Positions 40,862 through 60,245 of a stretch of DNA of 60,315 nt are shown in pieces. The position numbers were made by a program, and so were the translations under genes. Source of the stretch: an uncultured Candidatus Saccharibacteria bacterium (lineage in GTDB: Bacteria > Patescibacteriota > Minisyncoccia > UBA6257 > GWB1-50-10); contig CAYQPG010000001.1 of assembly GCA_964419525.1 (NCBI GenBank), forward strand, positions 1 through 60,315, given 5' to 3'. Position 1 is the first letter of the stretch, and each line of letters opens with the position of its first letter. The notes beneath the pieces are model-generated. The model saw nothing but the letters and a program-made list of their open reading frames with translations, was not told where the DNA came from and ran no database searches.

Positions 40862-42217
40862 ATGAAGCTAACTTTTTGCGGCGGCGCCAAAATTGTTACC
40901 GGATCGAACTATCTTTTGGAGTCGGGAGATACGAAAATACTCGTCGATTGCGGTTTGAACCAGGGAGAAAGTTTCTGCGACGATTTAAACTATGAAAAAT
41001 TCCCGTATGATCCGGGGGAAATAAAGGCCGTCTTCGTGACGCATGCCCACATCGATCACATCGGCCGCCTGCCCAAGCTCGTGAAAGAAGGGTTTTCAGG
41101 GACGATATATTCGACCGGACCGACGAGGGATTTCGCGGAATCAATGCTTTTGGACACGGCTCACGTGATGACCGAAGATGCGGAAAAGAAAGGGCGTTCG
41201 CCTCTTTATGGTTTGGATGATATAGGTCGCGCGATCTCGCTTTGGTCCGGTAAAAAATATCACGATATCGTGGAAGTCGGTCCGTTCACTGTTGAATTTT
41301 ACAACGCCGGCCACATTCTGGGATCGGCCTCGATCATGGTGTCCGTCGAGGGCAAGAAAGTGGTATTTTCCGGCGATCTAGGGAACATACCCTCGCCCCT
41401 CATAACTTCCACTGAACAGATCAAAGACGCTGATTTCGCCCTGATCGAATCGGCTTACGGCGACAGGATTCACGAAGACTTGGATAAAAGGAAGGAAATA
41501 TTGGAGCAGACCATAAAGGGGGCGATCGGCGCCGGAGGCGTCCTTATGATACCGGCCTTCGCTTTGGAGAGGACGCAGGAGATGCTCTTCGAGCTCAATG
41601 AGCTGATGGAGAACGGTAAGATGTCCAGCGTGCCGGTTTTCATAGACAGTCCTTTGGCGATAAAACTCACGGAAGTCTACGAAAAATATTCCGATGATCC
41701 CATGTATTTCAACAAAGAAGCGGTGGGCCTCATGAAATCCGGCGAGGATATTTTCAATTTCCCCGGGCTTAAGATGACTCTCACCAAGGAAGAGTCCAAG
41801 GGCATAAATAGCGTGCCGCCGCCGAAGATAGTCATCGCGGGCGCCGGCATGTCGAACGGCGGAAGAATCTTGCATCACGAGGTAAGGTACCTGCCAGACC
41901 CTCGGAGTACCCTGCTCATAATCGGCTATCAATCCGCCAATTCGCTGGGTCGCAGGCTACTGGACGGCGAGAAAAAAGTGGAAATTCTGGGACAGGTCGT
42001 GGACGTAAAAGCGAAAGTTTTATCCATCAGCGGGTATTCTGCGCATGCCGACCAAAACCAACTTTTGGAATGGGTATCGCCTATGAAAGGCCGTCTTCGG
42101 AAGATTTTTGTGGTCCAGGGCGACGGAAATTCGTCGGAGATCCTGGCCGGTAAGATAAAAGAAAAATTCGGCCTCGAAGCAGAAGCGCCTTCACTGAATG
42201 AATCGGTGTTGTTATAA
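40862..42217 (+). CDS. MBL-fold beta-CASP metallo-hydrolase (RNA-metabolising type)
   Basis: HAHIDHIGRLP, and the C-terminal SGYSAHADQNQL motif. Confidence 0.8.
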   Translation: MKLTFCGGAKIVTGSNYLLESGDTKILVDCGLNQGESFCDDLNYEKFPYDPGEIKAVFVTHAHIDHIGRLPKLVKEGFSGTIYSTGPTRDFAESMLLDTAHVMTEDAEKKGRSPLYGLDDIGRAISLWSGKKYHDIVEVGPFTVEFYNAGHILGSASIMVSVEGKKVVFSGDLGNIPSPLITSTEQIKDADFALIESAYGDRIHEDLDKRKEILEQTIKGAIGAGGVLMIPAFALERTQEMLFELNELMENGKMSSVPVFIDSPLAIKLTEVYEKYSDDPMYFNKEAVGLMKSGEDIFNFPGLKMTLTKEESKGINSVPPPKIVIAGAGMSNGGRILHHEVRYLPDPRSTLLIIGYQSANSLGRRLLDGEKKVEILGQVVDVKAKVLSISGYSAHADQNQLLEWVSPMKGRLRKIFVVQGDGNSSEILAGKIKEKFGLEAEAPSLNESVLL

Positions 42218-42224
42218 TCAAGGT

Positions 42225-42887
42225 ATGAACACCAAGAGGATCAAAGAATCAGCGGGGAAGAAAAGCGCTAAAAAGGACGGTTTGGAGAGATTTCAAAATC
42301 ATAACCACACGTATCACCTGAAATATAAGATTTGCGTTTCGGGAGCCGCCGAGACGGGCCACTGTTCCAAGGACTCGTTCGAAAAAGCCGAGGCCATAGG
42401 ACGCGAGATAGCCAAAAGGGATCTCATTTTGGTCACCGGCGCGACGACCGGCATGCCTTATTGGGCGGCCAAGGGGGCTAAGGAAGCCGGTGGCATAGTC
42501 ATCGGTCTTTCGCCGGCCGTCTCCAAGGTGGCGCACGTGAAGACGTACCACCTGCCGCTCGACTATCACGACCTCATAGTTTACACCGGCTTCGATTATT
42601 CAGGGCGCAACCTGCTTTTGACTAGGGCCGCCGACGCCATAATAACCATCTGCGGAAGAATGGGGACTCTCAATGAATTCACCATCGGTTTCGAAGACCA
42701 TAAGCCGATAGGCGTCTTGGAGGGCACCGGCGGCACGGCCGACATGTTGAGGGATATACTTGAAAAAGCCCATCGTGGGTCTTCCAACGTCGTCTTTTCC
42801 GACGATCCCTCGAAGCTTCTGGACAAAGTCGTTGGACTCATAGAGGCCGAAGAGGAGAAAAACGGTGTAAAAGGTCGAGCTATATAG
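42225..42887 (+). CDS. TIGR00725/LOG-like Rossmann-fold protein
   Basis: ICVSGAA...LVTGATTGMPYWAAKGAKEAGGIVIGLSP...GRMGTLNEF. ATG 42225 follows the preceding stop (42215-42217). Confidence 0.55.
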   Translation: MNTKRIKESAGKKSAKKDGLERFQNHNHTYHLKYKICVSGAAETGHCSKDSFEKAEAIGREIAKRDLILVTGATTGMPYWAAKGAKEAGGIVIGLSPAVSKVAHVKTYHLPLDYHDLIVYTGFDYSGRNLLLTRAADAIITICGRMGTLNEFTIGFEDHKPIGVLEGTGGTADMLRDILEKAHRGSSNVVFSDDPSKLLDKVVGLIEAEEEKNGVKGRAI

Positions 42888-53877: not shown

Positions 53878-56800
53878 ATGCTTGATGATTCTGACAAGTT
53901 CTCTCTGCCGGAAGTTGAAGAGAGAGTCCTGAAATTCTGGAAGGAGAACGATATTTTTGGCAAATCGCTGAAAAAGAACAAATCGAAGAAAAAATTCGTC
54001 TTTTACGAAGGCCCCCCGACGGCCAACGGCCGGCCGGGCATCCACCACGTTTTGGGGCGATCTTTCAAGGATATAGTCTTAAGGTATAAGACTATGTCCG
54101 GATTTTACGTTCCTCGACGCGCCGGGTGGGATACGCACGGCTTGCCGGTCGAAATCGAAGTGGAAAAGAAGCTGGGGCTGAGATCGAAGCGGGAAATCGA
54201 AGAGTACGGCATCGCCGCTTTCAATAAAAAATGCCGGGAGTCGGTCTGGGAATATAAGGACGAATGGGAGAAAATCACCGAGCGCATTGGATTCTGGCTC
54301 GACATGGACCATCCGTACGTCACCTACGAGAAGAACTACATGGAAACTTTGTGGTGGATATTTTCCGAGGTCAACAAGAAAAAACTTTTGTACAAGGGCC
54401 ACAAGGTCGTCTCGTGGTGCACGCGCTGCGGAACGGCCTTGTCGTCTCACGAATTAGCTCAGGGGTACAAAACGACCGAGGATGCGTCCGTTTACGTGAA
54501 ATTCAGGCTTTGGCCGAACCAAGCGATCGGACGGAGTTTTACGACCGACGAAAAAACATACATCCTTTCGTGGACCACGACGCCCTGGACTCTGCCGGGG
54601 AACGTGGCTCTCGCGGTAGGCGATAGTATAAAGTATTTAGTAGTTGGTATCGAGGGGAGCGACGAAAAATACATTATTGCCTCTCTTTTAGCAGAAAAAG
54701 TGCTGAATACTAAATATAAAATACTGAATATTTTTAGCGGCAATGATCTTGTGGGATTGACCTACGAGCCGCTCTTCGACGTTCCGAAATTGAAAACGGA
54801 GAAATCGTATAAGGTTTACCCCGCCGACTTCGTAACGACGGAAGACGGCACCGGTGTCGTCCATACGGCCGTTATGTACGGCGAGGACGATTACCGGCTC
54901 GGCATGAAGGTTGGTTTACCGGCGTACCACACGGTTGATGTCTTGGGCAAGTTTACGGTCGATGTGCGGGAACTGGCGGGTTCATACGTGAAGGCGAAGG
55001 AAACGGAAGACGCGATATTCGGGTATTTAAAAATTAAAAATTCGTTATTAAAAATTGAGTCTTATGCTCACGAATACCCGTTTTGCTGGCGGTGCGGAAC
55101 GCCGCTTCTGTACTACGCCCGCGATTCGTGGTTCATCGGCATGAGCAAGCTGAAGCAAAAACTCATCGCATCCAATGCAACGATCAATTGGATCCCGGCG
55201 ACGATCAAGCAGGGAAGGTTCGGCGAATGGCTGAGGGACACCAAGGACTGGGCGATATCGCGGGAGCGATATTGGGGGACGCCGTTGCCGGTTTGGGTGT
55301 GTGGAAAATGCGGAGCGACCGAAGTCTTGGGAAGCATCGGGGAGTTGGAAAAGAAACTCGGCAAATCAAAGAACAACTATTGGGTGATGCGCCACGGCGA
55401 GGCGGAGAACAACGTGCTCGACATCATTGACGCGACGAGAACTAAATTCCACTTGACGGCGCGGGGGAGAAAGCAGGTCGAGGCATCGATCCGTAAGTTC
55501 AAGAAAGAACTTTCCCGAAAAGGCGAGAAAATCGACATCGTCATATCGTCGGATATCCTGCGAACCAAGGAAACCGACGAGATAGGTTTGAAAATATTGG
55601 GCACGGTGGAATCGAAGACGGACCGGCGACTTGAGGAGATAAACCTTGGAGCCGACTTAGCCGGATGCCATGATGAGAAATACCACGTCCTGTTCCCCAC
55701 GTACGCGTCAAAGTTCGAGAAGCGCCCCGTGGGTGGAGAGTCAGTGCGGGATCTCCGGTCGCGCCTTTGGCAATTTCTCAAGGAATGCGAATCGAGATAC
55801 GAAGGAAAGAATATTCTCCTCGTGACGCACGAATATCCCATCTGGATGCTGTTTCAGATCGCCGAAGGGTGGAGTGAGCGGGAAGCCGTCGCCGAAAAAG
55901 AAAAGCTGGGCGACGATTTCGTGAAGTTCGCCGAGGTCAGGAGGCTCGGCTTGAAAATGGTACCGCGAAACGACACTGGTGAGATCGACATTCATAAGCC
56001 GTATGTCGACGAGGCGGTTTTCCCGTGCCGATGCGGCGGGACAATGAAGCGAATTTCCGAGGTCGCGGACGTATGGTTCGATTCCGGCTCGATGCCGTTC
56101 GCGGAGGATCATTATCCGTTCGACGCGAAAAAAATAGATTTCCCGGCCGATTACATTGTTGAAGGAGTCGATCAAACGCGTGGTTGGTTTTACACGCTCT
56201 TGGCTGTCGCGACGCTTTTGGGGAAAAAGGCACCCTATAAGAACGTTATTTCTTTCGGTTTGGTTTTGGACAAGAACGGGCAAAAAATGTCCAAATCGAA
56301 GGGTAACGCCGTAAATCCGTGGGATGTGATCCAAAAATACGGAGCTGACGCCCTGAGGTGGTATTTTTATACCGTGAATTCGCCAGGCGAGCCGAAAAAA
56401 TTCGACGAGGCGGACCTTGGAAAAGTTCTCCGGCAGTTTATTTTGACGATCTATAACTCGTACGTCTTCTACAAAACCTACGCTGATAAAAATTCGAAAT
56501 ACAAAATACCAAATACGAAATGCAATAATGTCCTTGACCGTTGGATTCTTCTTCGGCTCAACGAGACCGTCGGCGCGGCGACGAAGAAGATGGACTTATA
56601 TGACGTCGGCGGGGCTGGCAAATCTATTGAGGATTTCGTGGGCGATCTCTCGAGGTGGTATATCCGCCGGTCGCGAAGACGACTCCAGAGGTCGGACGAC
56701 AAAAAGGATTACGCCGCCGCTTCGGCCATCCTCGGATATTGCCTCGCGGAGCTTGCGAAGCTCATTGCTCCATTTATGCCGTTTTTCGCCGAATCGCTTT

Positions 56801-57404: not shown

Positions 57405-57620
57405 TTACTTTACTTTTTTGGCTATTTCAAATGCCAAATCTTTGATCTCCTCGAGGAGCTTTTTCGGTATTTTGGGCAGATTTTCCGCTGGCGTGCCGAT
57501 ATCATCGTCATCCGCCTCTTTGTGGTTCTTTTTGTAATATTCCGCTAGATCTCTTTCGGGATCGTTTGTTATTTCAACACCTTCCTCGAAGATCCTTTTG
57601 TCCTCAGAGTTATTTTCCAT
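57405..57620 (-). CDS. Small acidic protein (71 aa), hypothetical
   Basis: Overlaps the upstream ORF by 11 nt. Convergent with ileS across an 8-nt gap. Confidence 0.45.
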   Translation of the reverse strand: MENNSEDKRIFEEGVEITNDPERDLAEYYKKNHKEADDDDIGTPAENLPKIPKKLLEEIKDLAFEIAKKVK

Positions 57621-58461
57621 TATTGAATCTCCATTGTTTATTTTTGATGTCCACGAACCTGAACATCAGTTCCATCATAAAGTCATTGTTATATTCGCCG
57701 GTTATCAAGTCTATGTAATCTTCCCTACGGCGGCAATTCACGTCGAGCAATATTGGCTTTGCCGGAACGTGCGTAAGCTCGACCCGGTCATCTGACATGC
57801 CGGAACGCGATTTGACTTGGAATTTGGAATATTCCAGGCCGCCGTCAAAATTTGTTCCTATGGTGAAATCGACTTTATTTTTTTCTGGATTCAGGCCGGC
57901 GTCGTCTTCGGGCTTGGATTTAACTATCATGCTTTTCAGGCTGTACCTCCGATTCATGTCGGAAAGAGCCTCGATGACGGCCATTTCCGTCATCACGCCT
58001 CCAACCAGATTGTCGTAATTCTCCAGGCTATTCATGTATTTGGGGTATTTTTGCGTCAGCCCGTGCAAGACCTCGTGCATTTTCTCGAGAAGCTCCGATG
58101 GCTGCGTTCGGAGCTTTCGTATCACGAACATCATGTCTTGGTCCATGTAAGCCGCTTCCAATCCTTTCTTGTTCTTTTTCTTTTCAAGGATCTCTTTAGG
58201 CATGGCCTGCGACAGTTGGGATTCCAATATTGATACTCTTAAAAATCTTTCAAGGACGCCCAGATATGTCCTTGCGCTTCTTTTCTGGCTTTCGGAGAGT
58301 TCGGAATTTTCAACGTTTGCCGACCAGCTTTTCAGTTGATTCACGCCGGCTATGATGTCGGAATTTTTGTTCTCCAGTATATCGGCCGATCTGATTATTG
58401 TTTCAGCCGGTATCTTGTCCGGTACGCGCTCGTTTTCTAATGGTGATATTTCCATGGCCAT
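57610..58461 (-). CDS. Hypothetical protein with a possible PD-(D/E)xK / Mrr-like nuclease core in the C-half
   Basis: GGVMTEMAVIEAL ... KVDFTIG ... KFQVKSR fits the G..E...(D)...(Q/E)xK order. The motif reading is tentative. Confidence 0.45.
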   Translation of the reverse strand: MAMEISPLENERVPDKIPAETIIRSADILENKNSDIIAGVNQLKSWSANVENSELSESQKRSARTYLGVLERFLRVSILESQLSQAMPKEILEKKKNKKGLEAAYMDQDMMFVIRKLRTQPSELLEKMHEVLHGLTQKYPKYMNSLENYDNLVGGVMTEMAVIEALSDMNRRYSLKSMIVKSKPEDDAGLNPEKNKVDFTIGTNFDGGLEYSKFQVKSRSGMSDDRVELTHVPAKPILLDVNCRRREDYIDLITGEYNNDFMMELMFRFVDIKNKQWRFNNGK

Positions 58462-58469
58462 GTTTGAAG

Positions 58470-58498
58470 ATTATCCAACTATTGCGTCTCTACGTCAA
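58470..58498 (-). promoter_or_regulatory. Near-consensus sigma70 promoter directly abutting the ATG (leaderless-type)
   Basis: Minus strand: TTGACG, a 17-nt spacer, GATAAT, then 8 nt to ATG at 58461. No Shine-Dalgarno sequence. Confidence 0.5.
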
Positions 58499-58513
58499 AT
58501 CTTAAAAAGAAAA

Positions 58514-58542
58514 AGCCGCTTGATTACCAAGGCCAAGCGGCT
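58514..58542. terminator. Bidirectional rho-independent terminator
   Basis: agccgcttg...caagcggct hairpin flanked by an A-run (58505-58513) and a T-run (58544-58550). It ends the ParB-like operon on the minus strand. Confidence 0.6.
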
Positions 58543-58564
58543 GTTTTTTTGTTGTTTGGAGGAT

Positions 58565-59347
58565 TTAAGGCTTTTTTCCGTTGTTGTTCTTCGCTATCGC
58601 GTCGAATCTGTTCTTCCAGTCGGTGATGGACCGGGACGACTTCTTTTGGAGGTCGTCGATGTGCACTATGATGTTGCGCACTTCTTTTTCGGTCACGTCG
58701 CCGTCCTCGTACTTCTCAATCAAGGTTCTCATTGTGACGGCGTTTTTGATGCCGATTGACCTGTAGAGCCCCGTCAGGGTCCGCTGGATTTCCGTTACTC
58801 CGTTCTTTTTCTTCCGGCGTCCGGCGAGGGCCTCTTTGAGTTTTTCTACCGGTATTCCTTGGATCTCGGCAGCTTTGGGGACCGTGACGCTTCCGCCGGT
58901 CACCATTTCGAGCGCCCGCTGCACCTTAGCCCGCATCATGCGAGATTGAACATCGGTGATGTAGCGCCGGGCCATCCCACCCGGTAGTCCCAACAGTTCG
59001 CCTATTCGCTTCTTCGATTCCCCGCATTCGATGAGATTCATCACGGTGAGCTCTGTGTCGGCCTGCGTCGGAGGGAGAGATCCTCCCGTGTTGGCTTTGT
59101 AGGCCGCGGCGATCATCTCGCTCTTTGTGGTGACGTTGAGCACTTCGGCGTCAATCTCCTTTATGTCGTTCAACTCGTAAGCGTCGATCCGATGCCGTCC
59201 GTCGATCAATGTCTTGTCGGGCGCTATGAAGATGTCCGGTAATTTGATGCCGTTCTGTATCAGTTCGGCTAAGTACAGGACGTGATCCTGATTCAATTGA
59301 TACCGGACAAATAGGTTCAGCTTTAGGTCCGAAATCTTTACCCTCAT
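58565..59347 (-). CDS. ParB/Srx N-terminal-domain protein with a C-terminal HTH-like region
   Basis: LIDGRHRIDAY motif in the N-domain, then GESKKRIGELLGLPGGMARRYI. Confidence 0.7.
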   Translation of the reverse strand: MRVKISDLKLNLFVRYQLNQDHVLYLAELIQNGIKLPDIFIAPDKTLIDGRHRIDAYELNDIKEIDAEVLNVTTKSEMIAAAYKANTGGSLPPTQADTELTVMNLIECGESKKRIGELLGLPGGMARRYITDVQSRMMRAKVQRALEMVTGGSVTVPKAAEIQGIPVEKLKEALAGRRKKKNGVTEIQRTLTGLYRSIGIKNAVTMRTLIEKYEDGDVTEKEVRNIIVHIDDLQKKSSRSITDWKNRFDAIAKNNNGKKP

Positions 59348-59637
59348 TTCTCGTTACTCCCTTCTGTGTTTTTCTGTGATTTTTTGTCTTCCGGTCTCAT
59401 AAATCGGGCCGATTCGGCGCGCCAACCGGCACGCTTCTTTCTTATTTCCGAGAGTACTACGTAGGTACCCGGTTCCGGCCAGGTTTTTTCCGGCCAGACG
59501 GGAAGCTTGAGCGAGAACGTCACGACAATATTATCGAGTTTCTCGCACCGGCTCACGCAATACGGCCCGTGTCTTCCTTCCGGGATGATCTTATCGACCA
59601 CGGCCTCGTATTCTTCCGTCAAGAACGTTTTATTCAT
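59344..59637 (-). CDS. Hypothetical protein (97 aa)
   Basis: 4-nt overlaps on both sides indicate translational coupling within the operon. Confidence 0.45.
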   Translation of the reverse strand: MNKTFLTEEYEAVVDKIIPEGRHGPYCVSRCEKLDNIVVTFSLKLPVWPEKTWPEPGTYVVLSEIRKKRAGWRAESARFMRPEDKKSQKNTEGSNEK

Positions 59638-60245
59638 GACTCGTCTCCTTCCTTGAGAAGCACAAGCCTTGAGTTGATGTTGTTGAGGTGGGCAGTGAGA
59701 CGCGATATCGTCGCGCCGTTTGAATCACGCAGATCCTTGAGCTCGCTCTCGGAGAGATCGTTCAATTTTCCATCGTCGAGGAGATTTAAAAGTCCCCGCA
59801 TGATATTTGCGACGGCGTCGTGCCTCCGGCTTTCCGGTTTTTCCGTTCCAGCTGATGCGTCGGCGCTATTCGGGATTTCTATCCTGAAGGCGTCGGCTTT
59901 GATCTTCTTTTCGTCCAGATCGTTTTTTTTGTCTTTCCACAGGTTCCACATGCCTGCCTCTTTTTGGGATGTGGGTTTGTTTGCGCCGCGGAAAGTTCGG
60001 TAGAGAGTGTTGGCCTCGGAATAGCCGATGATCTTGGCCGCTTCTTCGCCGGAGATTAATCCGTAGCCTATGAGCTCCAGGAAATTGCGGTGGGTCTTCG
60101 GCATGTTTTCGAGCTCTATGACCCTGTAACCCATAAGGTCCAGGTAGCACATGAGCTTGATGAGAGTTTCGCCTCCGGGAGGCGTGAACGGCTCGCGAAG
60201 CCATCTCGCGATGGTCTCCAGGCCAACGGCGCAGAAATCCGCCAT
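59634..60245 (-). CDS. Hypothetical HTH-like protein; the reading frame stays open to the window edge
   Basis: ISGEEAAKIIGYSEANTLYRTF looks HTH-like. The frame upstream of ATG 60245 has no stop through 60315, so the real N-terminus may lie outside the window. Confidence 0.45.
   Translation of the reverse strand: MADFCAVGLETIARWLREPFTPPGGETLIKLMCYLDLMGYRVIELENMPKTHRNFLELIGYGLISGEEAAKIIGYSEANTLYRTFRGANKPTSQKEAGMWNLWKDKKNDLDEKKIKADAFRIEIPNSADASAGTEKPESRRHDAVANIMRGLLNLLDDGKLNDLSESELKDLRDSNGATISRLTAHLNNINSRLVLLKEGDES

Follow-up and report, generated by a model that had tools for sequence, protein, structure and literature searches.

Aminoacyl-tRNA synthetases are among the best-studied enzymes, and catalytic domains added to the catalytic body of the bacterial enzymes are rare, the classic case being the editing domain in connective peptide 1 (CP1), a nested hydrolytic domain already held by the class Ia synthetases. 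Two further arrangements are relevant here: NF040702 ('ileS_w_GNAT') shows that isoleucyl-tRNA synthetase (IleRS) tolerates an added catalytic module, and the Rv2228c-type RNase H/acid phosphatase (PRK07238) is a precedent for a branch-1 histidine phosphatase (HP) joined to a nucleic-acid enzyme. We analyzed contig CAYQPG010000001.1 (60,315 nt; this whole stretch is referred to as the window) from an uncultured ultra-small bacterium of the Candidate Phyla Radiation (CPR; Patescibacteria), in which the ileS gene encodes a type-2 IleRS (IleRS2) with a branch-1 HP domain nested in connective peptide 3 (CP3). Compared with CP1 editing, the window enzyme adds phosphoryl-transfer chemistry, and does so at CP3. 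It is not matched by NF040702 (330 bits vs. a cutoff of 1999), and its HP is nested, whereas that of the Rv2228c-type proteins is fused in tandem, end to end, to a different partner enzyme; the HP half of PRK07238 is among the best profile matches of the insert, yet the 54–58 bits obtained fall short of the cutoff of 326.

The solved structures closest to the window IleRS in both sequence and structure are those of T. thermophilus (1ILE), Priestia megaterium IleRS2 (PmIleRS2, 8C8W), and yeast IleRS. Type-2 enzymes were recognized by greater similarity to the T. thermophilus, eukaryote-like, and PmIleRS2 proteins than to IleRS1, and by a C-terminal region without the IleRS1 zinc-binding domain; the window IleRS matches 1ILE and PmIleRS2 at E = 1e-244, as against E = 1e-108 for the S. 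aureus enzyme and PmIleRS1, and the assignment is backed by its DUF5915 C-terminal domain and by the Foldseek ranking. It resembles the IleRS2 structures (1ILE; P. megaterium 8C8U/8C8W) in a full domain set with DUF5915-type C-terminal domains, with TM-scores of 0.80–0.92 normalized to the targets, shares a CP3 zinc knuckle with the T. thermophilus enzyme, and carries the GXHH variant described for part of IleRS2. It differs from the solved or described IleRS in ~208 extra residues that constitute an independent enzyme domain in CP3.

On the phosphatase side, the small branch-1 HPs PhoE (1H2E), PspA (4IJ5), Rv2419c (4PZ9, a glucosyl-3-phosphoglycerate phosphatase), HFP (9MMH, a riboflavin-pathway HP), and CobC (6E4B) have the same fold and size as the insert and share with it the R-H...R...E...H set, the Arg following the Glu, and a small helical cap (TM 0.68–0.77). 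The insert is only 20–23% identical to them, scores under every subfamily NCBIfam cutoff and, unlike them, has an N-x-Y signature before RHG, a C-terminal helix and strand that join its termini, and nesting in or adjacency to an aminoacyl-tRNA synthetase. The free-standing HPs of CPR bacteria (e.g., MBI3631270.1) belong to the same subfamily (34–40% identity) and have the same invariant residues, N-x-Y signature, and genomic module, but they are separate, highly basic proteins that end at the last beta-strand, and the zinc knuckle of their partner IleRS is short. Both families, IleRS2 and His_Phos_1, are known, and their combination is present in public databases only under uninformative automatic names, the single NCBI name for the nested-HP proteins being 'class I tRNA ligase family protein'. 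No description of an IleRS–phosphatase fusion was found in the full text of open-access papers and bioRxiv, including the IleRS2 phylogeny and structure paper (PMC10485003).

A histidine phosphatase nested in connective peptide 3

A first-pass annotation of the window had reported a complete branch-1 HP motif set (RHG, SS..R...T, GES, and a distal His) between two Cys pairs separated by 238 residues in a 1172-aa IleRS, and all of its coordinates, residue numbers, and motifs proved correct (Table 1). The window IleRS scores 907 bits against the IleRS equivalog TIGR00392 (cutoff 621), with the match broken in two at profile position ~510, and its flanks match Pfam tRNA-synt_1, Anticodon_1, and DUF5915. 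Between the flanks, His_Phos_1 (PF00300) is found with 92.4 bits (E = 3.8e-26) in the whole protein and 96.6 bits in the excised insert, scores that lie far beyond chance (gathering threshold 21.7). In the alignment to 1ILE, residues 494 and 703 of the window IleRS correspond to residues 480 and 488 of the T. thermophilus enzyme, and therefore ~208 residues occupy the place of ~7. C478 and C717 are 238 residues apart, whereas the equivalent Cys pairs of 1ILE are separated by 37, which agrees with the earlier remark that in known IleRS the pairs lie a few dozen residues from each other.

In IleRS structure papers CP3 is the element between the 'SRxRYWGxPxPxW' and 'DVWFDSG' motifs; it leads from CP2 into the second Rossmann half, and its topology varies among the C. 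albicans, S. aureus, and T. thermophilus enzymes, the zinc motif being found in the T. thermophilus type only (PMC7191050). Since CP3 topology differs between solved IleRS, the site that hosts the phosphatase, within the conserved zinc knuckle, is a peripheral and structurally variable connective peptide. This refines the earlier placement in the catalytic core: the host element is the CP3 subdomain of the catalytic domain and not the Rossmann core.

Table 1. Coordinates of the features in the ileS region of the window
Feature	Position (nt)	Strand	Basis
tmRNA gene, immediately after smpB	51327-51665	-	Rfam tmRNA 122 bits; ARAGORN
smpB, left border of the cluster, divergent from argS	51666-52112	-	Pfam SmpB
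argS (ArgRS, 527 aa), directly upstream of ileS	52180..53763	+	Pfam Arg_tRNA_synt_N, tRNA-synt_1d, DALR_1
ileS, nested-phosphatase type-2 IleRS, 1172 aa	53878..57396	+	uninterrupted open reading frame; TIGR00392
Class-I signature, non-canonical G54-I-H56-H57 (GXHH)	54037..54048	+	counterpart of HVGH in 1ILE
Intact editing motif of CP1, W232-TTTPWTLP-240	54571..54597	+	homologue alignment
CP3 zinc knuckle, first Cys pair C475/C478	55300..55311	+	120/120 homologues; T. thermophilus C461/C464
Nested His_Phos_1 branch-1 HP domain, aa 495-702	55360..55983	+	boundaries from alignment to 1ILE
PF00300 envelope, aa 502-667	55381-55878	+	Pfam
RHG motif with nucleophilic His, R505-H506-G507	55390..55398	+	R/H in 142/142 nested
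Second catalytic Arg, R562 (in SSDILRTKET; S557-S558..R562..T566)	55561..55563	+	142/142 nested, 123/123 free-standing
General acid/base E621 (in GGES; G620-E621-S622)	55738..55740	+	142/142 nested, 123/123 free-standing
R629, eight residues past the Glu	55762..55764	+	142/142 nested, 123/123 free-standing
Distal catalytic His, H651	55828..55830	+	142/142 nested, 122/123 free-standing
C-terminal helix and strand, aa 667-690, returning the chain to its entry point	within nested domain	+	AlphaFold2 model
CP3 zinc knuckle, second Cys pair C717/C719	56026..56034	+	119/120 and 120/120 homologues; T. thermophilus C502/C504
KMSKS motif K803-S807, intact	56284..56298	+	K803, M804, K806 invariant

The AlphaFold2 model of the full-length protein has a mean predicted local distance difference test score (pLDDT) of 90.4 and a predicted TM-score (pTM) of 0.84, with pLDDT of 90–97 in the blocks of the insert; the insert modeled in isolation reaches a pLDDT of 96 and a pTM of 0.92. 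In Foldseek it matches many solved branch-1 HPs with probability 1.00, TM 0.70–0.77, and 20–23% identity, among them Rv2419c-type hydrolases, PspA, the riboflavin-pathway HFP, CobC, TIGAR, and dPGMs. The insert thus shows the profile score, the RHG motif with a second Arg and a second His, the Glu donor, and the alpha/beta fold of branch 1. R629 aligns with the Arg of 'YNRV' in PspA (4IJ5), the top PDB sequence match of the insert, although at E = 1e-4 only. The riboflavin-pathway neighbor 9MMH was noted as a lead only; ribF lies immediately upstream of ileS in many Proteobacteria.

The insert falls into none of the characterized HP subfamilies that were profiled. Scores of 56.8–60.3 bits for dPGM_arch (NF038349; cutoff 225) speak against identity with dPGM (also profiled as TIGR01258), and those for the alpha-ribazole phosphatase CobC (TIGR03162, 45.2–49.1 bits vs. 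162.9) and the phosphoserine phosphatase PspA (NF045917, 30.6–34.7 bits vs. 350) are equally insufficient. The phosphohistidine phosphatase SixA (TIGR00249) was matched with 24 bits (cutoff 74.5) in its N-terminal half only, and the GpmB score is likewise under the profile cutoff. A role for Y602 and F613 as cap residues stacking on the base of a nucleotide is unsupported, the free family having Leu/Met and Ile/Leu at these positions.

The catalytic residues R505, H506, R562, E621, R629, and H651 are unchanged in the best 120 full-length homologues, and in a wider set of 142 complete inserts, which adds divergent fragments with identity down to 31%, S558 and G530 are invariant beside these six. 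In the free-standing homologues the R and H of the RHG motif are found in 122 of 123 proteins, the sole exception being an alignment gap. When the window was compared with two close relatives, L001 and L002, Nei-Gojobori ratios of nonsynonymous to synonymous substitution rates (dN/dS) came to 0.07–0.11 for the insert and 0.05–0.10 for the two synthetase halves. Judged by these substitution patterns, the insert is under purifying selection equal in strength to that on the surrounding essential enzyme, with its catalytic apparatus specifically kept. Profile, model, conservation, and selection tests agree with the earlier description of a catalytically intact-looking phosphatase nested in an essential synthetase.

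The reading frame is unbroken and the GC content even across the insert boundaries; no direct or inverted repeats beyond short chance matches flank the insert, and Pfam detected no Hint, intein, or endonuclease domain in the window IleRS. The continuous frame, uniform GC content, and colinear homologues exclude the frameshift or assembly join at either boundary that the first-pass annotation had named as a danger, and a normal connective peptide with chance motifs is excluded as well. Artefact, intein, and chance-motif readings are therefore excluded.

The nested architecture is not confined to the window. Both PF00133 and PF00300 were found in all of the best 120 full-length matches from a collection of 5.8 billion proteins (56–80% identical overall), which derive from NCBI, JGI, ENA, and Logan assemblies, some on contigs of up to 775 kb. 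The named sources among these homologues are the Patescibacteria group, Paceibacterota, or Minisyncoccia, and divergent nested-HP fragments carry the names Nealson-, Sung-, Magasanik-, and Colwellbacteria as well as Paceibacterota, so that the taxonomic breadth is that given by the source names of metagenome-assembled genomes. An exhaustive HMMER search, with the insert as query against 1.84 billion cluster representatives, gave 2148 matches at E <= 1e-3 and 311 at E <= 1e-10; the long proteins among the 150 best matches are colinear with the window IleRS and have the HP at the CP3 site. A single-protein search of genome contigs returned four close CPR loci and one distant HP from Terribacillus. 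The occurrence of the same architecture in homologues from so many sources argues that it is old and clade-wide in CPR bacteria and no assembly artefact.

Several nested-HP proteins deviate from this picture in details. Two fragments (P0005 and P0006) are labeled 'Nanoarchaeota archaeon' and 'Sedimentisphaerales bacterium'; since the IleRS sequence on either side of the HP shows the CPR type seen in the window, the labels are taken as binning noise and probably reflect mis-binning rather than an occurrence beyond CPR. In locus L003 (CAZLHU010000001.1, 2528-6043) the IleRS body is 44–48% identical to that of the window and the nested HP 62.5%, the reverse of the general pattern (body ~58%, insert ~40%), possibly as a result of recombinational domain exchange or rate heterogeneity. 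Additional length variation is seen in the close homologues P0186 (1373 aa), P0122/P0124, and P0181/P0199, including a 197-aa N-terminal extension and a 56-aa insertion after residue 7.

The synthetic and editing motifs of the synthetase are intact. Residues W232, T233, T234, T235, W237, T238, L239, and P240 of the editing motif are unchanged across 118 homologues, and RPGIHHVLAR is the consensus around the class-I HIGH signature, which has the swapped form GIHH, in the IleRS clade of the window. The GXHH variant confers mupirocin hyper-resistance on IleRS2 (Brkic et al., 2023, PMC10485003), and therefore the CPR clade of the window is predicted from its signature to be intrinsically mupirocin hyper-resistant. 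The window IleRS is not a MupA or MupB protein (NF000257/NF000258, 809 and 793 bits vs. a cutoff of 1900), and no T-box or other RNA leader was found upstream of ileS.

Free-standing relatives and the argS-hp-ileS module

The same HMMER scan of cluster representatives yielded ~45 free-standing proteins of ~190 aa that are 34–40% identical to the insert, the closest of them from Staskawiczbacteria/Parcubacteria; the free family comprises 653 clusters at E <= 1e-10. Loci were looked up for P0272 (Ca. Staskawiczbacteria, MBI3631270.1), P0274, P0299, P0335, and P0287, which belong to two different clusters; a sixth look-up, P0375, led to a 650-bp contig and stands outside these five informative loci. 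In 5/5 of them, as judged by BLAST and Pfam, the free hp gene lies on the same strand 1–7 bp upstream of ileS and downstream of argS (argS upstream in L006, L008, L011, L012, and L014). The partner IleRS, where complete, has 955–984 aa and no His_Phos_1, and in L006 its CP3 knuckle is short (CxC, here CEC, then 44 residues and CxxC, here CHKC). In the nested-type relatives L001–L004, too, argS is the gene immediately preceding ileS, and a free hp gene does not intervene. The order in the window is tmRNA and SmpB (minus strand), ArgRS, and IleRS, and an hp gene between argS and ileS is missing because the HP sits inside ileS. The window thus carries the fused state of a conserved CPR argS-hp-ileS module, in which the nested form replaces the free gene. 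SmpB holds the same position beside argS in L006 and L017.

The free and nested forms share the N-x-Y signature just ahead of RHG, and the free proteins stop precisely with the beta-strand (…GELRELN) by which the nested chain returns to its entry; adjacent termini, a precondition for nesting, were therefore present in the subfamily beforehand. In a neighbor-joining tree of 128 HP domains the nested and free forms are interleaved, at a resolution too poor for insertion events to be counted from the tree. The free proteins bear only the names 'histidine phosphatase family protein', 'PhoE', or 'putative phosphoglycerate mutase', and K15634 is also assigned; given the uninformative or phosphoglycerate mutase (PGM)-type names of the nested and free forms, CPR metabolic reconstructions may miscount both.

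The HP is also found in two other formats. Protein P0302 (689 aa) is an end-to-end fusion of ArgRS with a C-terminal His_Phos_1 domain, encoded on 70-kb contigs from two independent samples (L017/L018, 4001-6070) in the order L20-L35-IF3, SmpB, ArgRS::HP, RecO, with no ileS at the usual position. Two or three HP domains are present in the IleRS proteins P0279 (1087 aa, C-truncated) and P0338 (1419 aa; L007, 1932-6191), which belong to a different IleRS2 sub-lineage (PPFATGxPHYGH) and host the domains at three sites. The first site is CP3. The second is the loop between 'WFESGSMPYA..HYPF' and 'FIAEGLDQTRGWF' (before GLDQTRGWF) at window aa ~750, a position at which insertions of 25 aa occur in other homologues. 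The third is the loop at window aa ~870, which runs from the last helix before the anticodon-binding domain to the first helix of that domain and has low pLDDT in the AlphaFold2 model. The catalytic set is kept in all HP copies of the two proteins except the first of P0279, which has GGQS for GGES. Among close homologues of the window IleRS, insertions of 25–26 aa occur at position ~750, the loop that hosts the second HP in P0279. P0338 reaches 199 bits against the CobC cutoff of 163 only by summing its two HP domains, which is not evidence of CobC function. A neighboring gene in L007 encodes myxo-type Cys-rich repeats.

Nested and free forms differ in charge. The free HPs of L006, L008, L011, L012, and L014 have a median isoelectric point (pI) of 9.85 and a median net charge of +16 in ~190 aa, whereas the nested HPs are near neutral (median net charge +3). 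Per 100 aa, the net charge of the free HPs (+5.6 to +10.3) compares with +8.8 to +15.4 for IF3 and SmpB and +0.9 to +4.2 for ArgRS of the same loci, and it is also above that of most IleRS, a glycosyltransferase, and RecO in the control set. Gene order and domain content together establish a genetic link, in CPR bacteria, between a catalytically intact HP subfamily and the two genes ileS and argS.

A proposed partnership with the synthetases and competing explanations

On balance, the evidence leans toward the insert being a genuine, catalytically competent branch-1 HP, the fused state of argS-hp-ileS, that acts stoichiometrically with IleRS. A partnership between HP and synthetase is suggested because the module has been kept in lineages that have diverged to 26–40% ArgRS identity, because fusion recurs in different formats, and because three insertion sites have become fixed in IleRS, which is costly in an essential enzyme unless selected or well tolerated. 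Enzymes of the HP superfamily work through a phospho-histidine formed on the RHG His, helped by two Arg, a second His, and a Glu. Judging from the invariant residues, H506 would attack a phosphomonoester to give the phospho-histidine intermediate, R505, R562, and H651 would stabilize it, and E621 would serve as proton donor and acceptor, while the zinc knuckle would pin the neighboring N- and C-termini of the domain. The nested HP would accordingly be pictured as a phosphomonoesterase that is active and acts in stoichiometric partnership with IleRS, possibly also with ArgRS, on a phosphorylated compound connected with aminoacylation.

As to that compound, we propose with low confidence a phosphate on RNA, either at the tRNA acceptor end or on a nucleotide linked to aminoacylation, because the free HP is as basic as IF3 and SmpB of the same loci and the tethered form is not; it is suggestive that a free HP would have to find an RNA or RNA–protein complex alone and a tethered one would not. 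Over a large part of CPR a second, unrelated chemistry, phosphoryl transfer, has become associated with IleRS and ArgRS; the three genetic formats (adjacent gene, end fusion, and nesting once or several times) are the pattern expected of a real functional partnership. If the partnership is real, these minimal-genome organisms would have an unrecognized step of tRNA or aminoacylation metabolism. If it is not, the locus offers a clean natural case of how a permissive loop in an essential enzyme can capture a domain, of use to protein engineering and to the understanding of nested-domain origin.

A number of observations weigh against the partnership. The fold of the insert is that of a generic PhoE/PspA/Rv2419c-like small-molecule phosphatase according to Foldseek, and all three HP insertion sites are variable surface loops, so that the placement may reflect permissiveness rather than geometric need. 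Because ileS is absent from the ArgRS::HP locus, the HP is not tied to IleRS alone. Tight gene spacing and high pI are weak arguments in compact, AT-rich CPR genomes with generally basic proteomes; one IleRS of the control set itself has a charge of +7.0 per 100 aa. Common descent could account in part for the conserved synteny. We know of no enzyme of the HP superfamily that acts on RNA, and no literature was found that joins this superfamily with tRNA aminoacylation. Activity, substrate class, and physical coupling to IleRS are predictions from sequence, gene order, and structural model.

The most serious competitor, which we regard as possible though rather unlikely, is that an unrelated housekeeping small-molecule phosphatase or mutase (PGM- or PhoE-like), which by chance lay between argS and ileS in an ancestral housekeeping operon, was captured, by local duplication or recombination into permissive loops or by read-through fusion to ArgRS, after which the free copy was lost; its catalytic residues would then be kept for the cell's need of the activity and not for IleRS. 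The most likely source of a local insertion is a neighboring gene, the sites are variable loops, the HP stays with argS where ileS lies elsewhere, and the 60-kb window encodes no further HP or PGM. The nearest neighbors are moreover small-molecule HPs (Rv2419c, PspA, the riboflavin-pathway HFP, CobC, and the dPGM_arch profile), and the free form is annotated as PhoE, putative phosphoglycerate mutase, or K15634. The specific profiles, however, are far under their cutoffs (dPGM_arch 57–60/225, CobC 45–49/163, and PspA 31–35/350), insertions fixed at three sites, with two or three copies per IleRS, are difficult to account for unless selection favored an HP on IleRS, the basicity of the free form is unusual among metabolic enzymes when set against same-locus controls, and the module persists across lineages with strongly diverged ArgRS.

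A narrower form of the partnership, which we consider unlikely, gives the synthetase a third active site, the HP, with the tRNA as its substrate: it would strip a 2'/3'-phosphate or a (pyro)phosphate block from the A76 end, as repair or against toxins, or remove some other RNA-linked phosphate. CPR bacteria would in that case have hard-wired a tRNA-end phosphatase into IleRS, with the free basic form doing the same job in trans for IleRS and ArgRS. Of the roles raised in the first-pass annotation, hydrolysis of Ap4A or an alarmone has the least chemical support, since branch-1 HPs hydrolyze phosphomonoesters and the same HP is fused or adjacent to ArgRS, which to our knowledge does not make Ap4A.

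It is improbable that the domain is chiefly a sensor or switch, in which the phosphate pocket or phospho-His state would sense a phosphometabolite (e.g., a glycolytic intermediate or acetyl phosphate) and tune aminoacylation to energy status allosterically via CP3, or that it is mainly a structural, phosphate-binding module. The bridge that CP3 forms between CP2 and the second Rossmann half would permit conformational coupling (PMC7191050), and the Gln in place of the proton-donor Glu in one copy of P0279 (GGQS) is what a binding or trapping variant would show. Against this, the Glu and the other catalytic residues are strictly kept in 142 nested and 123 free forms, which points to turnover rather than mere binding, and an HP that also occurs on its own or joined to the C-terminus of ArgRS does not fit CP3-specific allostery.

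An IleRS-specific defense against antibiotics or toxins, with the HP dephosphorylating an inhibitor or adenylate mimic or reversing an inhibitory phosphorylation of the synthetase, is very improbable. Resistance determinants are commonly found beside or within target genes, this IleRS clade already has the mupirocin-linked GXHH, and the HP superfamily includes protein phosphatases. Nonetheless, the architecture belongs to the housekeeping equipment of a whole clade and is neither patchy nor mobile, so that resistance to adenylate mimics, also raised earlier, fits it poorly; a mobile-element signature is absent around the insert, the HP is linked equally to ArgRS, and we know of no phosphorylated IleRS inhibitor and no IleRS-targeting kinase. 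An artefact or selfish element (assembly chimera, frameshifted gene pair, intein, or chance motifs) can be dismissed in view of more than 120 independent colinear homologues (NCBI, JGI, ENA, Logan), the continuous open reading frame of uniform composition, the 92-bit Pfam match, the purifying selection, and the lack of a Hint/intein domain and of flanking repeats.

Other features of the window

The tag peptide encoded by the window tmRNA is DNNKVAAPAFAFA. RecO, the next gene after ileS in other CPR loci, is missing downstream of the window ileS; in the region 57610-60245 (minus strand), three open reading frames (283, 260, and 203 aa) are without a Pfam match and the AT skew shifts markedly, so that the end of the contig may consist of mobile or phage-derived DNA. 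On the other side of the cluster, a NUDIX hydrolase (49550-50020, plus strand) is encoded two genes upstream of smpB, and a SLOG cluster-4 (LDcluster4) protein (42198-42887, plus strand) adjoins an RNase J-like beta-CASP gene.

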